Of a DNA stretch of 43,730 nucleotides, positions 1,768-43,118 are shown piece by piece. The notes beneath the pieces are model-generated. The model had not been told where the DNA came from. It searched no databases and saw only the letters and a list, made by a program, of their open reading frames with translations. The stretch lies in the UHGV virus genome UHGV-1360180. One strand, written 5' to 3'. The position numbers were made by a program, and so were the translations under genes. Within the stretch, counting starts at the first letter, position 1, and each line of letters begins with the position of its first letter. The DNA is from a virus.

Positions 1768-1792
1768 CACCTGAATAGTTAACTATTATAGT
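1764..1792 (+). promoter_or_regulatory. Sigma70-like promoter TTGACA-N17-TATAGT with AATAGTTAACTATT palindrome in the spacer
   Basis: TTGACA 1764-1769, TATAGT 1787-1792; perfect 14-bp palindrome 1774-1787; 55 nt upstream of SSB-like gene. Confidence 0.45.
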
Positions 1793-17297: not shown

Positions 17298-17330
17298 TTG
17301 CACACCCCAATATAATAGGGTACTATTCAC
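17298..17330 (+). promoter_or_regulatory. Conserved 33-bp promoter TTGCAC-N17-TACTAT with embedded AATAGGGTACTATT palindrome
   Basis: TTGCACACCCCAATATAATAGGGTACTATTCAC; near-identical copies at 26525, 29515 and, on the minus strand, 39602; 25 nt upstream of island gene at 17355. Confidence 0.5.
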
Positions 17331-17354
17331 CTGTAACTTACTGAGGAAATAATT

Positions 17355-17681
17355 ATGCGTAAATTAGTATTAGCTCTGGGGTTTATGTCTTTTGCTGCTT
17401 TTGGGTCTCCGTGCGAACAGGTATTTAGTGAATCTGTTCTTATTACTTCTGGCGTACTTGAGAAAGCCGACCCTACTATTGTAAAGGCGTTTAAGGACTC
17501 TACAGTTCGTGAATGTGAGGCCGCCGTAGAGGTCGGTAAATCGGGCCTACCCCCGCAAGCCGTAACGTACACGGTGATACGTTCGGTAGAGAAAAACGGA
17601 GACGCGTTTTACAGCCTACTGACGGCCACCCGCCTGCAAATGGTAATGACTGGGTGGGCGATAGGCGTGGAAAGTAAATAG
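17355..17681 (+). CDS. Small secreted/periplasmic protein
   Basis: 108 aa; N-terminal signal-peptide-like MRKLVLALGFMSFAAFG; RBS GAGGA; opposite strand to flanking tail genes. Confidence 0.5.
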   Translation: MRKLVLALGFMSFAAFGSPCEQVFSESVLITSGVLEKADPTIVKAFKDSTVRECEAAVEVGKSGLPPQAVTYTVIRSVEKNGDAFYSLLTATRLQMVMTGWAIGVESK

Positions 17682-17746
17682 TCGCCTTTATTTAAAGGAA
17701 TGCACTGTGGTTAAATAGGACAAATCCTAAACACGAGGACGTAAGA

Positions 17747-18877
17747 ATGGCCCAGAAGAAAATAACCGACGAACAGTTACAGGAAGAATTGAACGCCGGT
17801 ATGAAGAATATAGATATAGCTAGTAAATACGGCATCTCAGACCGCGTTATTCGTATTCGTAAGGCGAAGCTGGCTAAGAAAGGGGTCGGTCACGGGCGAG
17901 ACGTTAGTCACCTTGTGCCGGACGGCTACAAGATTAAAGGGACGTCGTCCCTGGTGGACGAGTTTGGCAACACTAAGTTGCAATGGGTTAAGACTGACAC
18001 TGACGCCGAACGTCAGGTCGAGTTGATGAAAGCCGTAATTGAGGGCATGAAGTCGGAGATTACGCCGGTCGCCCCTGTTAAAGCCGTTCGCGCCAAACGC
18101 GACGACAAACTACTCAATCTTTACACGGTATCTGATTTCCATCTCGGTATGCTGGCCTGGGCCGACGAGAGCGGCGACGACTGGGACATGAAGATTGCGG
18201 AAGACCTGTTCTCCCGTTGGTTCGATGCTGCATTTCAGAAAGCACCGGATGCGGGCACGGGCGTTATTAACCTGCTTGGCGACCTTGCGCACTTCGATAG
18301 CCTGGATGCGGTTACGCCAGCGAGTGGCCATGTTCTTGATGCGGACACGCGCTATCAGAAACTGGTCCGCTACATGATTCGCATGGTCCGCCGTGTTATT
18401 GATATGGCGCTGGTTAAGCATAAAAATGTTCGCTTGCTTATCGTGCAAGGTAACCACGACGAGAGTGGCATGATTTGGTTGGCTGAGATGTTCAGTACGC
18501 TGTACGACAATGAGCCGCGTGTGTTCGTCGATACGTCGCCGGATGTTTACAAGATGGTGCAACACGGCAAAACGACGCTGTTCTTTCATCACGGGCACAA
18601 GGCACGATTCGACGCTATCGAACCGGTTATGATCGCCAAGTTCCGTAAAGCCTTCGGCGAGAGTGTTTACAGCTACGCCCACGTAGGCCACCTGCACCAC
18701 CAAAAGATTGTAGAGAGCCGTAATATGGTTGTTGAGCAACACCGCACCTTAGCGGCTAAAGACGCCTACGCCTCTCGCGGCGGATGGATGTCAGGCCGTA
18801 GTGCAAATGTAATTACTTATAGCGCCGAATATGGTGAGGTCGCTCGTTTAACTATTTCACCGGAGATGCTGGGATGA
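17747..18877 (+). CDS. Metallophosphoesterase (SbcD/Mre11-like calcineurin-fold) with N-terminal HTH-like domain
   Basis: 376 aa; motifs VSDFHLG, GDLAHFD, GNHD, HHGH, GHLHH; N-terminal ~45 aa HTH-like (NIDIASKYGISDRVIRIRKAK). Confidence 0.6.
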   Translation: MAQKKITDEQLQEELNAGMKNIDIASKYGISDRVIRIRKAKLAKKGVGHGRDVSHLVPDGYKIKGTSSLVDEFGNTKLQWVKTDTDAERQVELMKAVIEGMKSEITPVAPVKAVRAKRDDKLLNLYTVSDFHLGMLAWADESGDDWDMKIAEDLFSRWFDAAFQKAPDAGTGVINLLGDLAHFDSLDAVTPASGHVLDADTRYQKLVRYMIRMVRRVIDMALVKHKNVRLLIVQGNHDESGMIWLAEMFSTLYDNEPRVFVDTSPDVYKMVQHGKTTLFFHHGHKARFDAIEPVMIAKFRKAFGESVYSYAHVGHLHHQKIVESRNMVVEQHRTLAAKDAYASRGGWMSGRSANVITYSAEYGEVARLTISPEMLG

Positions 18878-19104
18878 CTTCAAAATACAACCGAACAATG
18901 ACAAACACTCACGGCAGCACTATGACAGTAGACGTCTACGATGTGCTGCGCGCCTTCGATATCCGGGACCCGGCGTTACAGCACGCATTGAAGAAGCTAT
19001 TGTGCATGGGCTTGCGAGGCCACAAAGACACCGGAACAGACTTAGCGGAAGCAATCGAAAGTCTCGAGAAGTTACGGGAATACCGAAGTAACATTGACGA
19101 GTAA
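18874..19104 (+). CDS. Hypothetical protein
   Basis: 76 aa, ATGA-coupled to upstream gene. Confidence 0.4.
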   Translation: MTSKYNRTMTNTHGSTMTVDVYDVLRAFDIRDPALQHALKKLLCMGLRGHKDTGTDLAEAIESLEKLREYRSNIDE

Positions 19105-19109
19105 GAAAA

Positions 19110-19125
19110 GGCCCCGAAAGGGGCC
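19110..19125. terminator. Bidirectional terminator
   Basis: GGCCCC-GAAA-GGGGCC hairpin between convergent genes. Confidence 0.55.
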
Positions 19126-19131
19126 TTAGTT

Positions 19132-26524: not shown

Positions 26525-26557
26525 TTGCACACCCCAACATAATAGGGTACTATTCAC
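26525..26557 (+). promoter_or_regulatory. Conserved 33-bp promoter (TTGCAC-N17-TACTAT) with AATAGGGTACTATT palindrome
   Basis: TTGCACACCCCAACATAATAGGGTACTATTCAC; upstream of plus-strand island. Confidence 0.5.
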
Positions 26558-26594
26558 TTACACCAACAATGTTAACTTAAATGGGAGATGGAAA

Positions 26595-26756
26595 ATGAAA
26601 TTAGCAAAAAGAATTACCGTAAATACTAATTTAAGTTCGAAAAATGGGGACAAACGTAAGTTCCGCCGTAAAATGCGTCAGATTGTTAAACTTGACTACA
26701 TTTTCGAAGAAACGATTGCACTAGTGGCAAACGCTGCCCGTAACTGGGGGCGCTAA
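26595..26756 (+). CDS. Small basic protein (53 aa)
   Basis: Manual translation MKLAKRITVNTNLSSKNGDKRKFRRKMRQ...; RBS GGGAGATGG; first gene of island. Confidence 0.3.
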   Translation: MKLAKRITVNTNLSSKNGDKRKFRRKMRQIVKLDYIFEETIALVANAARNWGR

Positions 26757-26757
26757 T

Positions 26758-27222
26758 ATGATGTATGCAATTTACGTAGCGGCGATATGCGCTGCTAACT
26801 TTTCGGTAACTGTGTTTGGTCCGTTAGCGACACCGGTAAATGCCTTTCTACTTATTGGGCTTGATTTCGTAATAAGAGATAAGTTGCACGAGAGGATTGG
26901 CGTACAAAAAATATTCATACTGATACTAGTAGCTGGCATTATAAGTTTCTCCATAAACCCGGCAACCGGAAAGATTGCTGTGGCAAGCGTTGTTGCCTTC
27001 GCTTGTGCTGCCATCCTGGATGCCGTTGTTTACCAGGCACTAATCAATAAAAAGTGGCTAGTTAAGTCAAATGTAAGTAATACCGCGGCCTCGGCGGCGG
27101 ACTCTTTTATTTTCCCACTAATAGCTTTCGGTTCTTTCATGCCGCTAGTCGTACTGGGCCAATTCGCGGCTAAGGTTTTTGGCGGAGCTTTGTGGTCTTT
27201 CTTGTTGAGGAAAATTAAATGA
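26758..27222 (+). CDS. Polytopic membrane protein, candidate queuosine-precursor transporter (YhhQ/DUF165-like)
   Basis: 154 aa, ~4 hydrophobic helices; translationally coupled to TGT-like gene; family assignment from recall, not a search. Confidence 0.4.
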   Translation: MMYAIYVAAICAANFSVTVFGPLATPVNAFLLIGLDFVIRDKLHERIGVQKIFILILVAGIISFSINPATGKIAVASVVAFACAAILDAVVYQALINKKWLVKSNVSNTAASAADSFIFPLIAFGSFMPLVVLGQFAAKVFGGALWSFLLRKIK

Positions 27223-27953
27223 CGGTGCATTACCACGGGGGTCCTATTTGGGGTGGGGATGAGCTTATAAAAGCATTGTACCGTGGGGGTGGCGCTCTGG
27301 TGTCATATGCCCGCCCTGACCAAATACAAAAAATCGCCGCCTTGAGATGTAAATTAGTGTTGGACAACGGAGCTTTTTCGACATGGAAGAAAGCACCTGA
27401 CAACATAGACTGGAGCGCCCATTGGGCAGGATATTATGATTTTGTCGGAGAGTGGTTCAGTCGTATTGAGTGGTTCATTATACCGGACGTTATAGAGGGC
27501 ACGGAGGAAGAGAACGACGCATTAATAGAAACTGTCCCAGATTGGTTAAGGTCTAAGGCAGTCCCGGTGTGGCACAGTGACGAAAGCATAAGAAGACTAG
27601 TAAAGCTGTGCCGTGGGTTCAATCGGGTAGCGATAGGTTGCTGCGGACCGCACAGGGCCATACGGTCTAAGTCATGGGAGAAAAGAATGGACCAGGCGTT
27701 TAATGCGGTTTATAGAAACAGAAAATTGGATGTAAAACTCCATGGCCTTAGAATGCTGGATGGGAGGGCTCTAAGCCGTTATCCTTTCGACAGCGCTGAC
27801 AGTACAAACGTAGCTATAAATGTGCCAAAAACTAAAGCAAGACTACCTAACATAACAGACAAACTACATCGAACCGCTATAATGAGGCACACCATAGAAA
27901 TGGTTAAACCCCCTACAGTAACGGAATGGTTACTTAAAACTAAGGCCCCTTAA
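27219..27953 (+). CDS. tRNA-guanine-transglycosylase-like protein, candidate DNA 7-deazaguanine transglycosylase (DpdA-like)
   Basis: 244 aa; LVLDNGAF resembles TGT substrate-binding motif (TDSGGFQ); acidic IIPDVIEG; adjacent to transporter-like gene. Confidence 0.5.
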   Translation: MTVHYHGGPIWGGDELIKALYRGGGALVSYARPDQIQKIAALRCKLVLDNGAFSTWKKAPDNIDWSAHWAGYYDFVGEWFSRIEWFIIPDVIEGTEEENDALIETVPDWLRSKAVPVWHSDESIRRLVKLCRGFNRVAIGCCGPHRAIRSKSWEKRMDQAFNAVYRNRKLDVKLHGLRMLDGRALSRYPFDSADSTNVAINVPKTKARLPNITDKLHRTAIMRHTIEMVKPPTVTEWLLKTKAP

Positions 27954-27964
27954 CGGGGCCTTTT
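27944..27964. terminator. Bidirectional terminator
   Basis: GGCCCC-TTAAC-GGGGCC-TTTT; overlaps stop of TGT-like gene. Confidence 0.55.
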
Positions 27965-27965
27965 A

Positions 27966-28427
27966 TCATTCTGGCTTAGTGACCTTCGCCGCTTTGCTAA
28001 CGGTCTCTACGCCACCGGCATCGGTAACCTTAACGAAGTATTCGCCCGCAGCGTTAACCGTCAGAGACAAAGCCTCTTCGGGGGCGTTTACCACTTCCTT
28101 TCCGTCTTTGTACCAGGTAAGCGCGTATGGCGCTTTGCCTGCCTTAACTTCGACAGCGATAGTTGCGCTGCCGTCTGTCAGTTCTGTATCTTTCGGCTGC
28201 ACAGAGAAATACACATCGCCAGCGTCCGCCAGATACGGGATTTCATAAAGCATACCCGCCGCCGGTAACGTAATGCCGGTTTTATCCGCAAACGGCATAT
28301 CGTCTACAGGTGTACCGGGTACACTTTCATCCTCAATAAACACCACGTTCTCACCAGAGCCAGACACGCGGGCGTACTGTACTACGCGACGTGACGGTAC
28401 GTCAGTTACTTTGAAAAAGCCCATCAT
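27966..28427 (-). CDS. Hypothetical structural protein (beta-rich, possible Ig-like)
   Basis: 153 aa downstream of head morphogenesis gene. Confidence 0.35.
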   Translation of the reverse strand: MMGFFKVTDVPSRRVVQYARVSGSGENVVFIEDESVPGTPVDDMPFADKTGITLPAAGMLYEIPYLADAGDVYFSVQPKDTELTDGSATIAVEVKAGKAPYALTWYKDGKEVVNAPEEALSLTVNAAGEYFVKVTDAGGVETVSKAAKVTKPE

Positions 28428-29524
28428 TATTCCCCTTTCAGATAATCAGCAACACGTTTATCGAGTTCCGCCATCTGCTTAAGCGTCAGCGGATTCCCGA
28501 AACCATCTACAGATATTACGCGAAACTCTTCCGGCGATATACCGCTGTTACGGAAAATCTTACCGCGAACAGGGCCGAGCGCCTGGTCCTGGAACCATGC
28601 CGGTTGCTGTTTCAGGAACTCGTAATAGGTTGTGTCTGCGCTTACTTGTGTGCCGCCGTCCGCGCCCTTAGCAGCGCGTTTTGCCCCTTTATCGAGGAAG
28701 TCGAACTCTGAACTGATTACCGGAGCCGTACACGACCGACAGTTCGGATGGGCTGGTGGCATCGGCCCTTTACCGATCTCCCACGTCATTCCGTCTCTGG
28801 CTCTGCAAATCGTACTGGTACGGCTATCAAGCGTTGACACCCACTCGTACTTCTCGATGATGTCGTCGTTCTGGCGGTACGTCTCGTTACGGGCTTCGTT
28901 GGACACATGGGACAGGGCAGTGCGGATTACGGTAGCCGCGTTACGTTCAGAGATATCAGCCAGGCCACCGGCACCAACAACATTCTTTACAATCTGCCGC
29001 GTTGTCTGACCCTGAACAAAGCCCATCTTAACGCCGGTTACCAGGCGCGATACCTCTGTTTCACCCCAGCCCGACATCAGCTTAGTGAAGTCAACAGGCT
29101 TGTCACCCAACGATAAGGGTTGAAACTCGGCCGCGGCCCACACCTGCTCGGCAGTAGGCGTAACAAATTCCGCGTCTACGTTGGCGGTAAGTGTCTTTGC
29201 GTTCCACTCAGCCTCGTACGCCGCCAGTTCCTTAAGGTCTTCTGTCAGTTTTGTTTGCCAGTCGCCTGTAAGTCCGGTTAACGCTTCTTCAAGGTCGCGT
29301 AACAGTTTATTCAGTCGCGCAGTGCTGCGCCCATCGTCGCCGAATAGCAGAACCTGCCGTTTGATTTCATCTCGCATTTCCTGAATGAACGGCGCGAGGT
29401 CTTTCACCTCACCGGATGCGGTGCGTTGCAGCCATATCTGGTGGCTGATTAGGGATGTAAGTAAGCTCATAAGCCCTCCTGTCGTATCGACAGTGTAACG
29501 CATAAAAATAATATTTGCAGACAC
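28427..29524 (-). CDS. Head morphogenesis protein (minor head protein family, putative)
   Basis: 365 aa directly downstream of portal gene, the usual position for this family. Confidence 0.45.
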   Translation of the reverse strand: MSANIIFMRYTVDTTGGLMSLLTSLISHQIWLQRTASGEVKDLAPFIQEMRDEIKRQVLLFGDDGRSTARLNKLLRDLEEALTGLTGDWQTKLTEDLKELAAYEAEWNAKTLTANVDAEFVTPTAEQVWAAAEFQPLSLGDKPVDFTKLMSGWGETEVSRLVTGVKMGFVQGQTTRQIVKNVVGAGGLADISERNAATVIRTALSHVSNEARNETYRQNDDIIEKYEWVSTLDSRTSTICRARDGMTWEIGKGPMPPAHPNCRSCTAPVISSEFDFLDKGAKRAAKGADGGTQVSADTTYYEFLKQQPAWFQDQALGPVRGKIFRNSGISPEEFRVISVDGFGNPLTLKQMAELDKRVADYLKGE

Positions 29525-29547
29525 CAGTATAATAGGGTACTATTCAC
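29515..29547 (+). promoter_or_regulatory. Conserved 33-bp promoter (TTGCAG-N17-TACTAT variant) with AATAGGGTACTATT palindrome
   Basis: TTGCAGACACCAGTATAATAGGGTACTATTCAC upstream of single-gene island. Confidence 0.5.
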
Positions 29548-29585
29548 GTATAGGTGCTATTGAACGGAAAGAGAGGTTTACTAAA

Positions 29586-29900
29586 ATGATTGATTATCGT
29601 GCTCGCGCCACAAAAGCGGAACAAGAGAACGCTGTTTTAAGAGATAAATTAGCAAAAAAGCCTAATTTTGCTTGGTTCGTAGAGCAGGTAAGGTCTATGC
29701 TTAAAATACGTGCTGACGCACCTTTTAACGAAATAATAGCTAAGATTAAGGTATTGCGCGACAATCAAGAGCTATATAGAGAGGGTGCCGCAGTTCGTAA
29801 GTCCAACGATGAAGATGCAGAAAGATACTTCAATGAGGGTGTAGAGGAAGGAAAAAGAATGGAACGCGATAGAATTAAAAAACTAATAGGAAAAGTCTAA
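29586..29900 (+). CDS. Hypothetical protein (single-gene island)
   Basis: 104 aa, charged/helical; RBS GAGAGG; own promoter and terminator; opposite strand to flanking portal/head genes. Confidence 0.45.
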   Translation: MIDYRARATKAEQENAVLRDKLAKKPNFAWFVEQVRSMLKIRADAPFNEIIAKIKVLRDNQELYREGAAVRKSNDEDAERYFNEGVEEGKRMERDRIKKLIGKV

Positions 29901-29920
29901 GGCCCCTTATGGGGCCTTTT
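29901..29920. terminator. Bidirectional terminator
   Basis: GGCCCC-TTAT-GGGGCC-TTTT. Confidence 0.55.
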
Positions 29921-29922
29921 CT

Positions 29923-31392
29923 TTACTGTTGTGGTTGCGCCGACTGCGGAATCTCCCCAGATACCTGAGTAACAGCACCCAACGGCAGCGGTGCATCCTC
30001 AATAGCGTTCTGAATGTCCTCGTCTGTCCAGTCAGTTACGCCCGCCTTGCGTAATGCCGCGTAGTAAGCAGTAGCCGGTAGCAGGCCTGCGTTAATATCA
30101 GCCATCCACTGAGCGCGGTCCTGCGCGGTCATAGGTTGCAGGAAGAACTCCATATTCAGTTTGAACTCAATCTCTGTGCCTTCGCGCAATCCGAGCATCG
30201 CAGCTACCCAGCGCAATGCATCGGTATATGCCATGCTTACATTACGTGCAATTGTCGCCATAACGGACGTGTCAGCGCCGCGTTGCAGGCGGGCAGATTC
30301 AGCGGTGATTTGCTGTGTCGGGGTGATAAGCTGCGCACCAATCTGGATGGCCTGATTCTCTTTATCCAGCATGTTCTGCTTGGCGAGGTTGTTCTCTCCC
30401 GCCTGGACCAGAAACGCATTGCCGCCGTAGCCGATGTTATGGCCAGAACGCGACCCCATGCGCACACCGTGTGGGTTGGCTTCTTTCCACTGCTCCAGGC
30501 TCATATTCTCGCCCGGGGCGATGAACAGAGTGGGCTGGCCCACAACGAAGCTGGACTCCTCATTGTCCGCGCTGTTGCGGAAATGCCCGATATTAAGCTC
30601 AGCCAACGGCAGCAAAGGCGCATCGTCGATGGTTGCGTCGTTGTTGCTCGCCCCGATGAACGTGAACGGGATTTTTCCGCGTAACTGTTCGCCGAGTTCC
30701 GGGAATATTTCGATTACTTCGCCCTGAGCACCACCTTCGGCGTCGAAGCGGTAAATGCGCTGACGGTATCGTCCGTCAATCAAATCAAGAACGCGATACT
30801 GCTCACCGAATTTTGTTTCGAACTCTGCGCCAGGTTCGGAGTATTCCCATACTTCGCGCAACACGACCATTGTCACGCGGTTAACCGAACCGATGCGTGT
30901 CAGCCGCCAGTTGATGATGTTCTCTGCGGTGTAGAATGCGATTACCGGATTTAATAATCCTGCGTTCTGTTCTGCCGCCGTTGCCGCGGCTGTCTCCGGG
31001 GCGTCCACCAGCAACCCGCCACGGCCAACCGAGTCAACCTCCATCAGCGTATCCTGCGCGTGCTGCCACAGCCCGACACCGGAGCCGTCGGCGTTACGTA
31101 ACAGATACTCAAGCTCAGGCGGAATAATCTGCTCGGGGTCTTTACGCATCACTGACCCAACCATCCCCGCCAGGGTGCGCTTGGTGAAGTTGTAGCAGAT
31201 AGCGCCGTTCTCGTATTCTTCCTGGCGCTGTGCCGCGTAGGTCGGGTCCGGTTCGTTCTTCCCGACGTTGCGCAGGTAGCGAATAAGGTCGCCCTCCAGC
31301 GCGTGGCGTACCTTCTGCCATTTATCAAAGTGATGCAGCCATTCCCGGTGTTTTGTCTTAACACCCTGATTCTGACCGTTCATAGTTAACAT
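29923..31392 (-). CDS. Portal protein
   Basis: 489 aa immediately downstream of terminase large subunit. Confidence 0.6.
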   Translation of the reverse strand: MLTMNGQNQGVKTKHREWLHHFDKWQKVRHALEGDLIRYLRNVGKNEPDPTYAAQRQEEYENGAICYNFTKRTLAGMVGSVMRKDPEQIIPPELEYLLRNADGSGVGLWQHAQDTLMEVDSVGRGGLLVDAPETAAATAAEQNAGLLNPVIAFYTAENIINWRLTRIGSVNRVTMVVLREVWEYSEPGAEFETKFGEQYRVLDLIDGRYRQRIYRFDAEGGAQGEVIEIFPELGEQLRGKIPFTFIGASNNDATIDDAPLLPLAELNIGHFRNSADNEESSFVVGQPTLFIAPGENMSLEQWKEANPHGVRMGSRSGHNIGYGGNAFLVQAGENNLAKQNMLDKENQAIQIGAQLITPTQQITAESARLQRGADTSVMATIARNVSMAYTDALRWVAAMLGLREGTEIEFKLNMEFFLQPMTAQDRAQWMADINAGLLPATAYYAALRKAGVTDWTDEDIQNAIEDAPLPLGAVTQVSGEIPQSAQPQQ

Positions 31393-42803: not shown

Positions 42804-42818
42804 GGGGCGTTAAGCCCC
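42804..42818. terminator. Terminator hairpin shared by convergent genes
   Basis: GGGGC-GTTAA-GCCCC preceded by A-run, overlapping stop of repressor gene. Confidence 0.4.
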
Positions 42819-43025
42819 TTCACCGAACGCCAACCACTTGGCGTCTACTTGCAGCACTTCCGCCAGTTTAAACAGCGTCGCCGGGCGGACGTCCTGAGTT
42901 ACCCCGAGCGCAAGCTGGTTAATCGCGCCCTGGGAAACGCCGGCCAGGACCGCAAGACGGCGCTGGGAGATGCCTAGTTCTTTACGGCGTTGTTCTACAC
43001 GGATGCCTAGTTCGGATGGTTGCAT
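42810..43025 (-). CDS. XRE-family HTH transcriptional regulator (Cro/CI-like)
   Basis: 71 aa; LGISQRRLAVLAGVSQGAINQLALG HTH; AAGGAG RBS. Confidence 0.7.
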   Translation of the reverse strand: MQPSELGIRVEQRRKELGISQRRLAVLAGVSQGAINQLALGVTQDVRPATLFKLAEVLQVDAKWLAFGEGA

Positions 43026-43055
43026 GTCGATTACTCCTTAGTCAGTTGATATGTG

Positions 43056-43118
43056 AATAGTACCATATTAATTATTTTAGAAAAGCCCATTGACAAGTGA
43101 ATAGTTCGCTATTATAGT
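43056..43118. promoter_or_regulatory. Divergent control region with two operator-like palindromes and rightward TTGACA-N17-TATAGT promoter
   Basis: AATAGTACCATATT 43056-43069 next to repressor gene start; AATAGTTCGCTATT 43100-43113 within spacer of promoter TTGACA 43090-43095 / TATAGT 43113-43118. Confidence 0.45.

Follow-up and report, generated by a model that had tools for sequence, protein, structure and literature searches.

The virus genome UHGV-1360180, a sequence of 43,730 bp that we call the window throughout, raises a question at one point in its late region: why does a single gene, encoding a protein of 104 amino acids, lie backwards between the head-morphogenesis and portal genes, and what might its product do? 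By DNA similarity the window belongs to the genus Kagunavirus (Guernseyvirinae), and nearly all of the 102 phage records that match its DNA are Escherichia or Salmonella phages of the Kagunavirus type. An earlier reading of the letters (the original prediction) had singled out this gene as an accessory early gene with its own promoter and terminator. We find that the interval between the two structural genes, here termed slot A, is a cargo bay whose interchangeable contents are framed by two elements that the phage repeats elsewhere, a promoter motif and a GC hairpin. To that earlier reading the analysis adds a corrected promoter parse and head-gene start, this promoter- and terminator-framed bay with its motif-mediated exchange, and the small protein family to which the gene belongs, which crosses phage lineages and has a sharply conserved helix.

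Slot A holds interchangeable cargo

The start of the head-morphogenesis gene and the end of the portal gene were located in 12 relatives, and the DNA between them was extracted. Slot A is empty in RP180, Bas75 and AV104, where its 65-81 bp carry only the hairpin and a promoter-like remnant. The nine occupied loci (the window and eight relatives) hold at least five unrelated cargos. The 104-residue gene fills the slot in the window and in Logan contig L010; CR01 and 22664BS2 have a 93-residue Cys-rich protein there, EF2-1 a 94-residue protein, phage 26 and NRG857CP3 a 173-residue protein with weak clamp-like/RusA-like PHROG matches, and phiWAO78-1 and SXAU_B4 two or three small genes. The frame around these cargos is constant. 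The promoter motif stands 57-58 nucleotides from the ATG of the head gene in all nine occupied loci, and at the far end there is in every case a GGCCCC/GGGGCC hairpin.

The gene is therefore accessory, as had been proposed: its slot is empty in close relatives and holds unrelated cargo in others, and the same gene appears in other slots in AV104, LM08P1 and distant Guernseyvirinae-like contigs. Its occurrence within the genus is patchy, most Kagunavirus genomes being without it. In the empty slots a degenerate form of the promoter motif, GTTAATAGCATACTAT (12 of 19 positions by eye), abuts a GCCCC/GGGGC hairpin; this remnant has no -35 element, and the order is promoter, then hairpin. By its sequence, an empty slot A looks like the scar or landing pad of a cassette without cargo.

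Exchange of the cassette between slots

AV104 and LM08P1 carry the gene at 90% amino acid identity. In AV104, where slot A is empty, it lies in a second slot (slot B), downstream of a Hoc-like decoration gene; in LM08P1 it is likely to lie in the same slot, because its coordinates match those in AV104. The megablast match between the window and AV104 spans exactly positions 29528-29920, and the junctions were aligned against both slots of the window. Over the 60 nucleotides upstream of the promoter motif AV104 is identical to slot B at 50 positions and to slot A at 25. Over the 40 nucleotides downstream of the motif the relation is reversed (30 of 40 for slot A, 15 of 40 for slot B), so that the 5' leader is related to that of the AV104 cassette, with 30 of 40 positions identical, and unrelated to the slot B leader. 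In the 40 nucleotides after the hairpin AV104 again follows slot B, with 36 identities against 10 for slot A. Because the homology to AV104 switches at the motif and at the hairpin, the exchange points are the promoter motif and the hairpin that the two slots share. The alignments indicate that the cassette moves between slots by recombination within these two elements. In CR01 and others the same borders enclose different cargo.

Homologues with about 60% identity occupy a third slot in distant Guernseyvirinae-like contigs, between spanin-like genes on one side and the scaffold and major-capsid genes on the other. They too lie on the opposite strand with a promoter-like site of their own; the hairpin is clear in two of the three. 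Compared with AV104 and L010, the cargo of the window is 92-95% identical at the DNA level and the flanking head and portal genes 85.5-89%; the higher identity of the cargo mildly favours recent exchange.

The content of slot B varies as well. Elsewhere it carries the 104-residue gene (AV104), a gene for 67 residues (Bas75) or a DNA methyltransferase (JGI contig L014). In the window it holds three genes: a 53-residue open reading frame (ORF), a 154-residue protein (phrog_4899) and a 244-residue protein resembling queuine tRNA-ribosyltransferase/DpdA (phrog_887, 5e-84). We take the 154-residue protein to be YhhQ-like, that is, similar to a queuosine-precursor transporter, a likeness recognised by eye. 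Slot B of the window is probably a 7-deazaguanine DNA-modification cassette.

A repeated promoter motif

The promoter motif is a 19-mer, TATAATAGGGTACTATTCA, which occurs eight times in the window with up to three mismatches and not at all in 100 shuffles. All but one of the eight copies face an ORF whose start lies some 20-75 nucleotides downstream. The exception, at 1772..1790 (- strand, three mismatches), lies between two + strand genes with neither ORF nor hairpin downstream; it is probably a degenerate or decayed copy, or may have arisen by chance. A full 32-bp version, made up of TTGCACACCCCAA and the motif, is present without change in three copies, at 17298, 26525 and 39634.

Read as a sigma-70 promoter with proper spacing, the site upstream of the gene has TTGCAG as its putative -35 element, a 17-nucleotide spacer and TACTAT (29538-43) as its putative -10 element, and it matches the consensus at 7 of 12 positions. 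The motif also includes TATAAT (29528-33). Pairing this hexamer with TTGCAG was rejected, since the spacer would be just 7 nucleotides. As a match of 7 in 12 is mediocre, the case for a promoter is made by the repeated and correctly oriented motif and not by the consensus score. The genes headed by the motif that were scanned are non-structural: they comprise a Cro-like helix-turn-helix regulator, runs of small ORFs, an SbcD-like exonuclease and the DpdA-like gene, and there was no structural gene among them. The label 'early-type' is reasonable in view of this company. The conserved early-type promoter of the original prediction is supported at the level of sequence, with its hexamers now parsed as TTGCAG-17-TACTAT.

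Two tandem copies of the motif (43054..43116, - strand) precede the gene of a 71-residue Cro/CI-like helix-turn-helix regulator (42810..43025, - strand), and the conserved spacer, ACCCCAATATAATAGGGT, is an imperfect palindrome (14 of 18 positions by eye). Possibly, therefore, the regulator also uses the repeated motif as its operator; conservation of the motif beyond the needs of sigma-70 would then be accounted for.

A repeated terminator hairpin

Downstream of the gene, the stem-loop AAGGCCCC-TTAT-GGGGCCTT (29899-29918) has an 8-bp GC stem and is followed by TTCTTT. The last two T of the stem and TTCTTT together form the T-tract TTTTCTTT, which overlaps the stop codon of the portal gene (29923-29925, - strand). 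The predicted folding energy is -20.3 kcal/mol (z = -3.5), in agreement with the strong terminator that had been proposed here. The stem recurs in the window, as AAGGCCCC-N4/5-GGGGCCTT, at 2499, 8239, 19108, 27942 and 29899; the pattern search gave four matches where 0.01 were expected, and the fifth copy, at 27942, has a 5-nucleotide loop. The same stem sequence closes other transcription units of the window. It folds on the - strand as well (-16.3 kcal/mol), with the T-run displaced, and late transcription probably reads through it.

This second fold, together with the position of the island inside the late operon on the opposite strand, would also suit an island whose main role is regulatory, as a DNA or RNA element that acts on the late operon by antisense transcription, hairpin attenuation or transcriptional interference between the portal and head-morphogenesis genes, and in which the ORF is a passenger. 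We regard this as very improbable. Empty slots keep the hairpin with neither promoter nor ORF; the cargo varies, yet the ORF is under purifying selection and is conserved across phage families in ordinary same-strand operons; and a search of the island against Rfam gave no matches.

A basic protein with a conserved N-terminal core

The 104-residue protein (12 kDa) contains 24 Lys and Arg and 19 Asp and Glu residues. Its isoelectric point (pI) is 9.55, or 9.9 for the core described below, and its GRAVY score is -0.85, a hydrophilicity that leaves no membrane segment. The ratio of nonsynonymous to synonymous substitution (dN/dS) against three close homologues is 0.23-0.37, which marks the ORF as a real gene under purifying selection. 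Small size is the one feature that would suit a chance reading frame or a decaying remnant. We give that explanation practically no weight, as it is refuted by conservation: besides the dN/dS values, there are PHROG and profile matches down to 1e-17 and 1e-44, respectively, homologues in 91 phage records by tblastn and a good ribosome-binding site.

Two PHROG families match the N-terminal part, phrog_10768 at residues 3-63 (1e-17) and phrog_16432 at residues 2-65 (2.7e-14). Both contain the same N-terminal module and neither carries an annotation. This core of 65 residues aligns without gaps across 21-26 divergent members. Tyr4, Arg5, Arg7, Ala8, Ala11, Glu12, Gln13, Leu22, Leu39 and Leu57 are invariant, and Thr9, Ala16, Leu18 and Pro26 nearly so. 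At positions 4-13 eight of the ten residues are invariant or nearly invariant, giving the motif YRxRA(T)xAEQ, or YRxRATxAEQxNA in its longer form. The variable positions of helix 1 (6, 10, 14, 17, 20-21 and 23-24) form one stripe, so that some three quarters of the helix surface is constrained. The C-termini vary among subfamilies. The last 40 residues of the window protein are common to one subfamily only, and some family members consist of the core alone (63-76 residues).

An AF2 model built from 26 sequences (pLDDT 88, pTM 0.44) has helices at residues 2-23, 29-38, 47-59 and 61-103; an earlier model from a nine-sequence alignment was weak (pLDDT 73). The protein is predicted to be soluble, basic and all-helical. 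Some relatives, among them RB43 ORF126c (L009 3001..3471), P0024 and P0025, have a C-terminal extension of about 80 residues that appears beta-rich by eye (WHYSHWEDDEW...VLKYRK...).

Searches for function gave no lead. Pfam returned no match for the protein at E <= 1, NCBIfam only a noise match of 13.6 bits, and PADLOC no match, the libraries searched covering defence systems without a dedicated anti-defence set. The best PDB match to the single sequence was a chance helical one, to RING2 (E 0.24), and the best to the 26-sequence profile was a designed helical protein (E 0.85). Foldseek found nothing in the PDB with the weak pLDDT-73 model. Longer relatives (127-271 residues) were scanned with Pfam for informative fusions and none was found; a weak Ntox50 match on the 156-residue relative from RB43 (E 0.004) was below the cut-off and was set aside. 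Full-text literature searches on identifiers of family members returned nothing. The statement in the original prediction that nothing in the sequence indicates a particular function therefore holds after remote homology searches, structure prediction and fold searches.

Distribution of the family

A profile search of 1.84 billion representative proteins yielded 26 clusters, with matches down to 1e-44, and a second profile search, of 5.8 billion, gave 39 clusters at 90% identity, all of them unnamed or 'hypothetical' and none with a Pfam domain. The phage records found by tblastn have hosts in Klebsiella, Salmonella, Enterobacter, Citrobacter, Escherichia, Cronobacter and Erwinia. Both the protein and the phage-record searches limit the family to Enterobacterales phages. 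Among 185,579 bacterial and archaeal genomes, one per species, none contained a relative, and a scan of IMG/VR viral contigs added only three further loci, all in Moonvirus. The name 'methyltransferase domain' that two short members bear in their source has no Pfam support and was treated as annotation noise.

Outside Kagunavirus the homologues sit throughout among small non-structural genes, often in same-strand operons. They occur in Seuratvirus-sized siphoviruses (about 60 kb). In Jedunavirus myoviruses (KpV79) the homologue is the first gene of a helicase operon, behind a sigma-70 promoter and opposite genes for an exonuclease and an annealing protein. N4-like Erwinia phages have it upstream of the RNA polymerase genes, beside a macro-domain gene. 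In the T4-like Salmonella phage KM16 it is an unannotated ORF (L005 2501..2746) of the asiA-motA early region, just downstream of arn and ahead of the next annotated gene, and in T4-like RB43 it directly follows a C5 DNA methyltransferase gene, overlapping its stop. A lambdoid Rouxiella prophage has it between cIII and int; in this prophage and in a metagenomic phage, methyltransferases are found near the homologue. The label 'anti-restriction nuclease' on the KM16 homologue is an artefact, as it belongs to the neighbouring arn, with which the ORF overlaps by only about 30 nucleotides. Promoter and terminator scans around the KM16 and KpV79 homologues showed that in these two phages the gene does not form a stand-alone cassette.

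Early expression, the other part of the original prediction, receives indirect support: the motif that heads the gene is shared with non-structural genes, and in five other phage lineages the regions that contain a homologue are early or non-structural ones.

Proposed role of the 104-residue protein

We put it at slightly better than an even chance that the locus is a self-contained accessory cassette of promoter, leader, ORF and terminator, placed backwards in the late head operon, whose product binds a host target. The host RNA polymerase would transcribe the gene from about position 29550 to the hairpin at 29918. Transcription would be concurrent with that of the other motif-driven genes (the regulator, small ORFs, and genes for DNA metabolism and DNA modification) and would precede that of the late operon. 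Once the polymerase then read through the late genes on the other strand, antisense RNA would be made across the gene and would help to shut it off. Our best guess is that the protein would act stoichiometrically, by binding, and not as an enzyme. Helix 1 would use its invariant face to bind a conserved macromolecule of enteric bacteria, which could be the target of a takeover or part of a defence system; the C-terminal part, which is variable, would serve for oligomerisation or add a feature peculiar to the lineage. A host-directed target is favoured because the family spans phages with unrelated replication and transcription, which have only the host in common, and because the gene is dispensable within the genus. 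The neighbouring slots carry cargo for DNA modification, of the anti-restriction type (the DNA methyltransferase, and the pair of DpdA-like and YhhQ-like genes); this agrees with a theme of accessory genes at the host interface and points to nothing specific.

Several observations weigh against this proposal. A generic promoter scanner made no call at the island, the 7/12 match being under its threshold. The early timing and the activity of the promoter rest on the sharing of the motif and on gene context in other phages. Since empty slots keep the hairpin, that element is as much a part of the slot as of the cassette. Neither the sequence nor the fold searches found similarity to a characterised protein, those of anti-defence and host-takeover families included as far as the libraries searched, which are of defence systems, cover them. 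Finally, the high pI of the protein and its core, and its invariant Arg, Gln, Thr and Tyr residues, fit the binding of nucleic acid as well as that of protein.

The last point leads to the main rival, that the protein is a phage-directed nucleic-acid-binding factor, such as a small regulator that works as a dimer, or a protein that assists the phage's transcription, replication, recombination or DNA modification. Beyond its basic character, the N-terminal helix presents those four kinds of invariant residue followed by the heptad-spaced Ala8, Ala11, Asn15, Leu18 and Leu22; homologues adjoin DNA-metabolism genes in RB43, Jedunavirus, the metagenomic phage and the Rouxiella prophage; and some relatives bear the small, apparently beta-rich C-terminal extensions. 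We nevertheless consider it unlikely. The gene is dispensable and patchy, and neither a helix-turn-helix nor another known DNA- or RNA-binding domain was detected. Moreover, the family occurs in phages whose replication and transcription machinery is entirely different (T4-like phages, N4-like phages and siphoviruses), and with different machinery and a shared host a common phage-encoded target is unlikely.

The same distribution, in which many virulent phage lineages that share hosts carry the gene, and its character as optional, horizontally shuffled cargo in a hot slot would also be expected if it served competition between phages, for example by excluding co-infecting or superinfecting phages in the cytoplasm. 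The protein has no membrane or signal segment, which speaks against a classical exclusion protein acting at the envelope, and neither Pfam nor PHROG showed homology to known exclusion proteins. We hold this explanation to be improbable.

Returning to a host target, a broader proposal can be made, which we advance tentatively and would ourselves doubt sooner than accept. The 65-residue YRxRATxAEQ module may represent a new family of host-directed effectors, active in counter-defence or takeover. Enterobacterales phages of six or more unrelated lineages would have gained it by horizontal transfer: Kagunavirus, Seuratvirus-sized siphoviruses, Jedunavirus, N4-like Erwinia phages, several genera of T4-like phages and a lambdoid prophage. 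A conserved enteric factor would be bound by the invariant helix, and in Guernseyvirinae the module would be borne on a plug-and-play cassette with promoter and terminator. A 12-kDa protein with a sharply defined invariant surface, present in very different virulent phages that share only enteric hosts, is a concrete and testable candidate. Such a distribution typically marks factors directed against a conserved target in the host, so the gene is suited to screens on defence panels and for interactions.

Relation to morons and PeSL cassettes

The moron concept reportedly goes back to work by Juhala, Hendrix and colleagues in 2000 on the lambdoid phages HK97 and HK022. Classical morons belong to temperate phages, and it is typically the prophage that expresses them. 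Like a moron, the present locus is a single extra gene with its own (here predicted) promoter and terminator, between genes that are adjacent in relatives, and it lies inside a late structural operon with a lower GC content than its surroundings. Unlike classical morons, it is found in a virulent genus, it has as its promoter one more copy of a motif that the phage itself repeats, and it occupies a slot whose promoter and terminator borders stay fixed and whose cargo can be exchanged.

The locus also resembles the promoter-early stem-loop (PeSL) cassettes described in T4-type phages (Arbiol et al. 2010, PMC2839356; Comeau et al. 2014, PMC4122927). In both, small non-essential ORFans lie between promoter motifs of a sigma-70-like kind and stem-loop terminators, both of them repeated, and insertions, deletions and replacements between close relatives have their breaks in the promoter and stem-loop motifs. 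PeSLs have been described from the hyperplastic regions of T4-like myoviruses, where they share the strand of the genes around them (PMC2839356, PMC4122927), whereas the slots described here belong to a 44-kb siphovirus and lie on the opposite strand inside the head and lysis late block. Judged by its sequence, the locus is a moron-like or PeSL-like accessory early-gene cassette, in which known principles are attached to an uncharacterised protein. It is a well-documented case of those principles and does not overturn current ideas, and it shows that cassette shuffling mediated by promoters and terminators is not limited to T4-type phages. If the protein does belong to a host-effector family, modular shuffling of the PeSL type would extend beyond T4-like phages into late structural operons. 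As a natural cargo bay with fixed borders in a genus of small, engineerable siphoviruses, the slot is also useful for phage engineering.

Accessory regions of phage genomes have served as a source of counter-defence genes (Silas et al. 2023, bioRxiv 10.1101/2023.04.06.535777). Those regions resemble slot A in being variable loci between conserved core genes, with small, uncharacterised genes of fast turnover. The present case differs in that neither the 104-residue gene nor any homologue is known for counter-defence or for triggering cell death.

Organisation of the locus

The coordinates of the cassette and its surroundings are collected in Table 1. The large terminase gene comes after the portal gene. 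The head-morphogenesis gene starts at ATG 29470, where it has the ribosome-binding site AGGAGGG and gives a product of 347 residues, as in its homologues. With this start, the intergenic slot A measures 452 bp. The start at GTG 29524 in a mechanical list of ORFs (365 residues) was rejected, because the conserved ATG with its strong ribosome-binding site lies 54 nucleotides downstream; the 365-residue call runs through the -35 region of the island (29471..29524, - strand). Annotations of RP180, Bas75 and phiWAO78-1 likewise place the start of the head gene upstream of the conserved ATG.

Transcription of the cassette would start near 29550. The Shine-Dalgarno sequence GAGG (29573-29576) lies 9 nucleotides before the ATG of the 104-residue ORF. 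The GC content is 39% in the ORF, 51% in the whole window and about 55% in the flanks on both sides. A charged, helical product encoded on the strand opposite to both neighbours, in AT-richer DNA, is what had been described for this locus, and the strands, charges and base composition given here bear out that description.

Table 1. Features of slot A, its neighbours and related slots (window coordinates unless a contig is named)
Feature	Position	Strand	Remarks
Variable intergenic slot A (head-morphogenesis start to portal stop)	29471..29922	.	452 bp here, 65-81 bp when empty; slot survey and junction alignments
Putative -35 element TTGCAG (TTGCAC in other copies)	29515..29520	+	17 nt upstream of TACTAT
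Promoter motif TATAATAGGGTACTATTCA, 19-mer	29528-29546	+	8 copies in window, 0 expected
5' leader with GAGG Shine-Dalgarno	29547..29585	+	sequence
Coding sequence of the 104-residue basic, predicted helical protein	29586..29900	+	ATG start; core residues 2-66; variable C-terminal helix
Predicted intrinsic terminator, stem AAGGCCCC/GGGGCCTT, loop TTAT, T-tract TTTTCTTT	29899..29926	+	folding and pattern search
Head-morphogenesis gene (Mu F-like)	28427..29470	-	PF04233 3e-13, phrog_241 1e-155
Portal gene	29923..31392	-	DUF4055 5e-24, phrog_145 3e-149
Slot B island	26525..27962	+	exact 32-bp promoter; bidirectional-looking hairpin 27942-27962
Empty slot A, RP180	L002 2572..2640
Empty slot A, Bas75	L004 2572..2652
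Empty slot A, AV104	L001 4901..4981

A third island on the opposite strand is found within the tail-gene block (17298..19127, + strand), framed by further copies of the 32-bp promoter and of the hairpin (at 19108). It codes for a 108-residue protein (phrog_14165), a 376-residue SbcD-like DNA-repair exonuclease (phrog_704) and a 76-residue ORF. The last of these matches just the C-terminal ends of longer ATPase-type PHROGs and may be a truncated partner gene.

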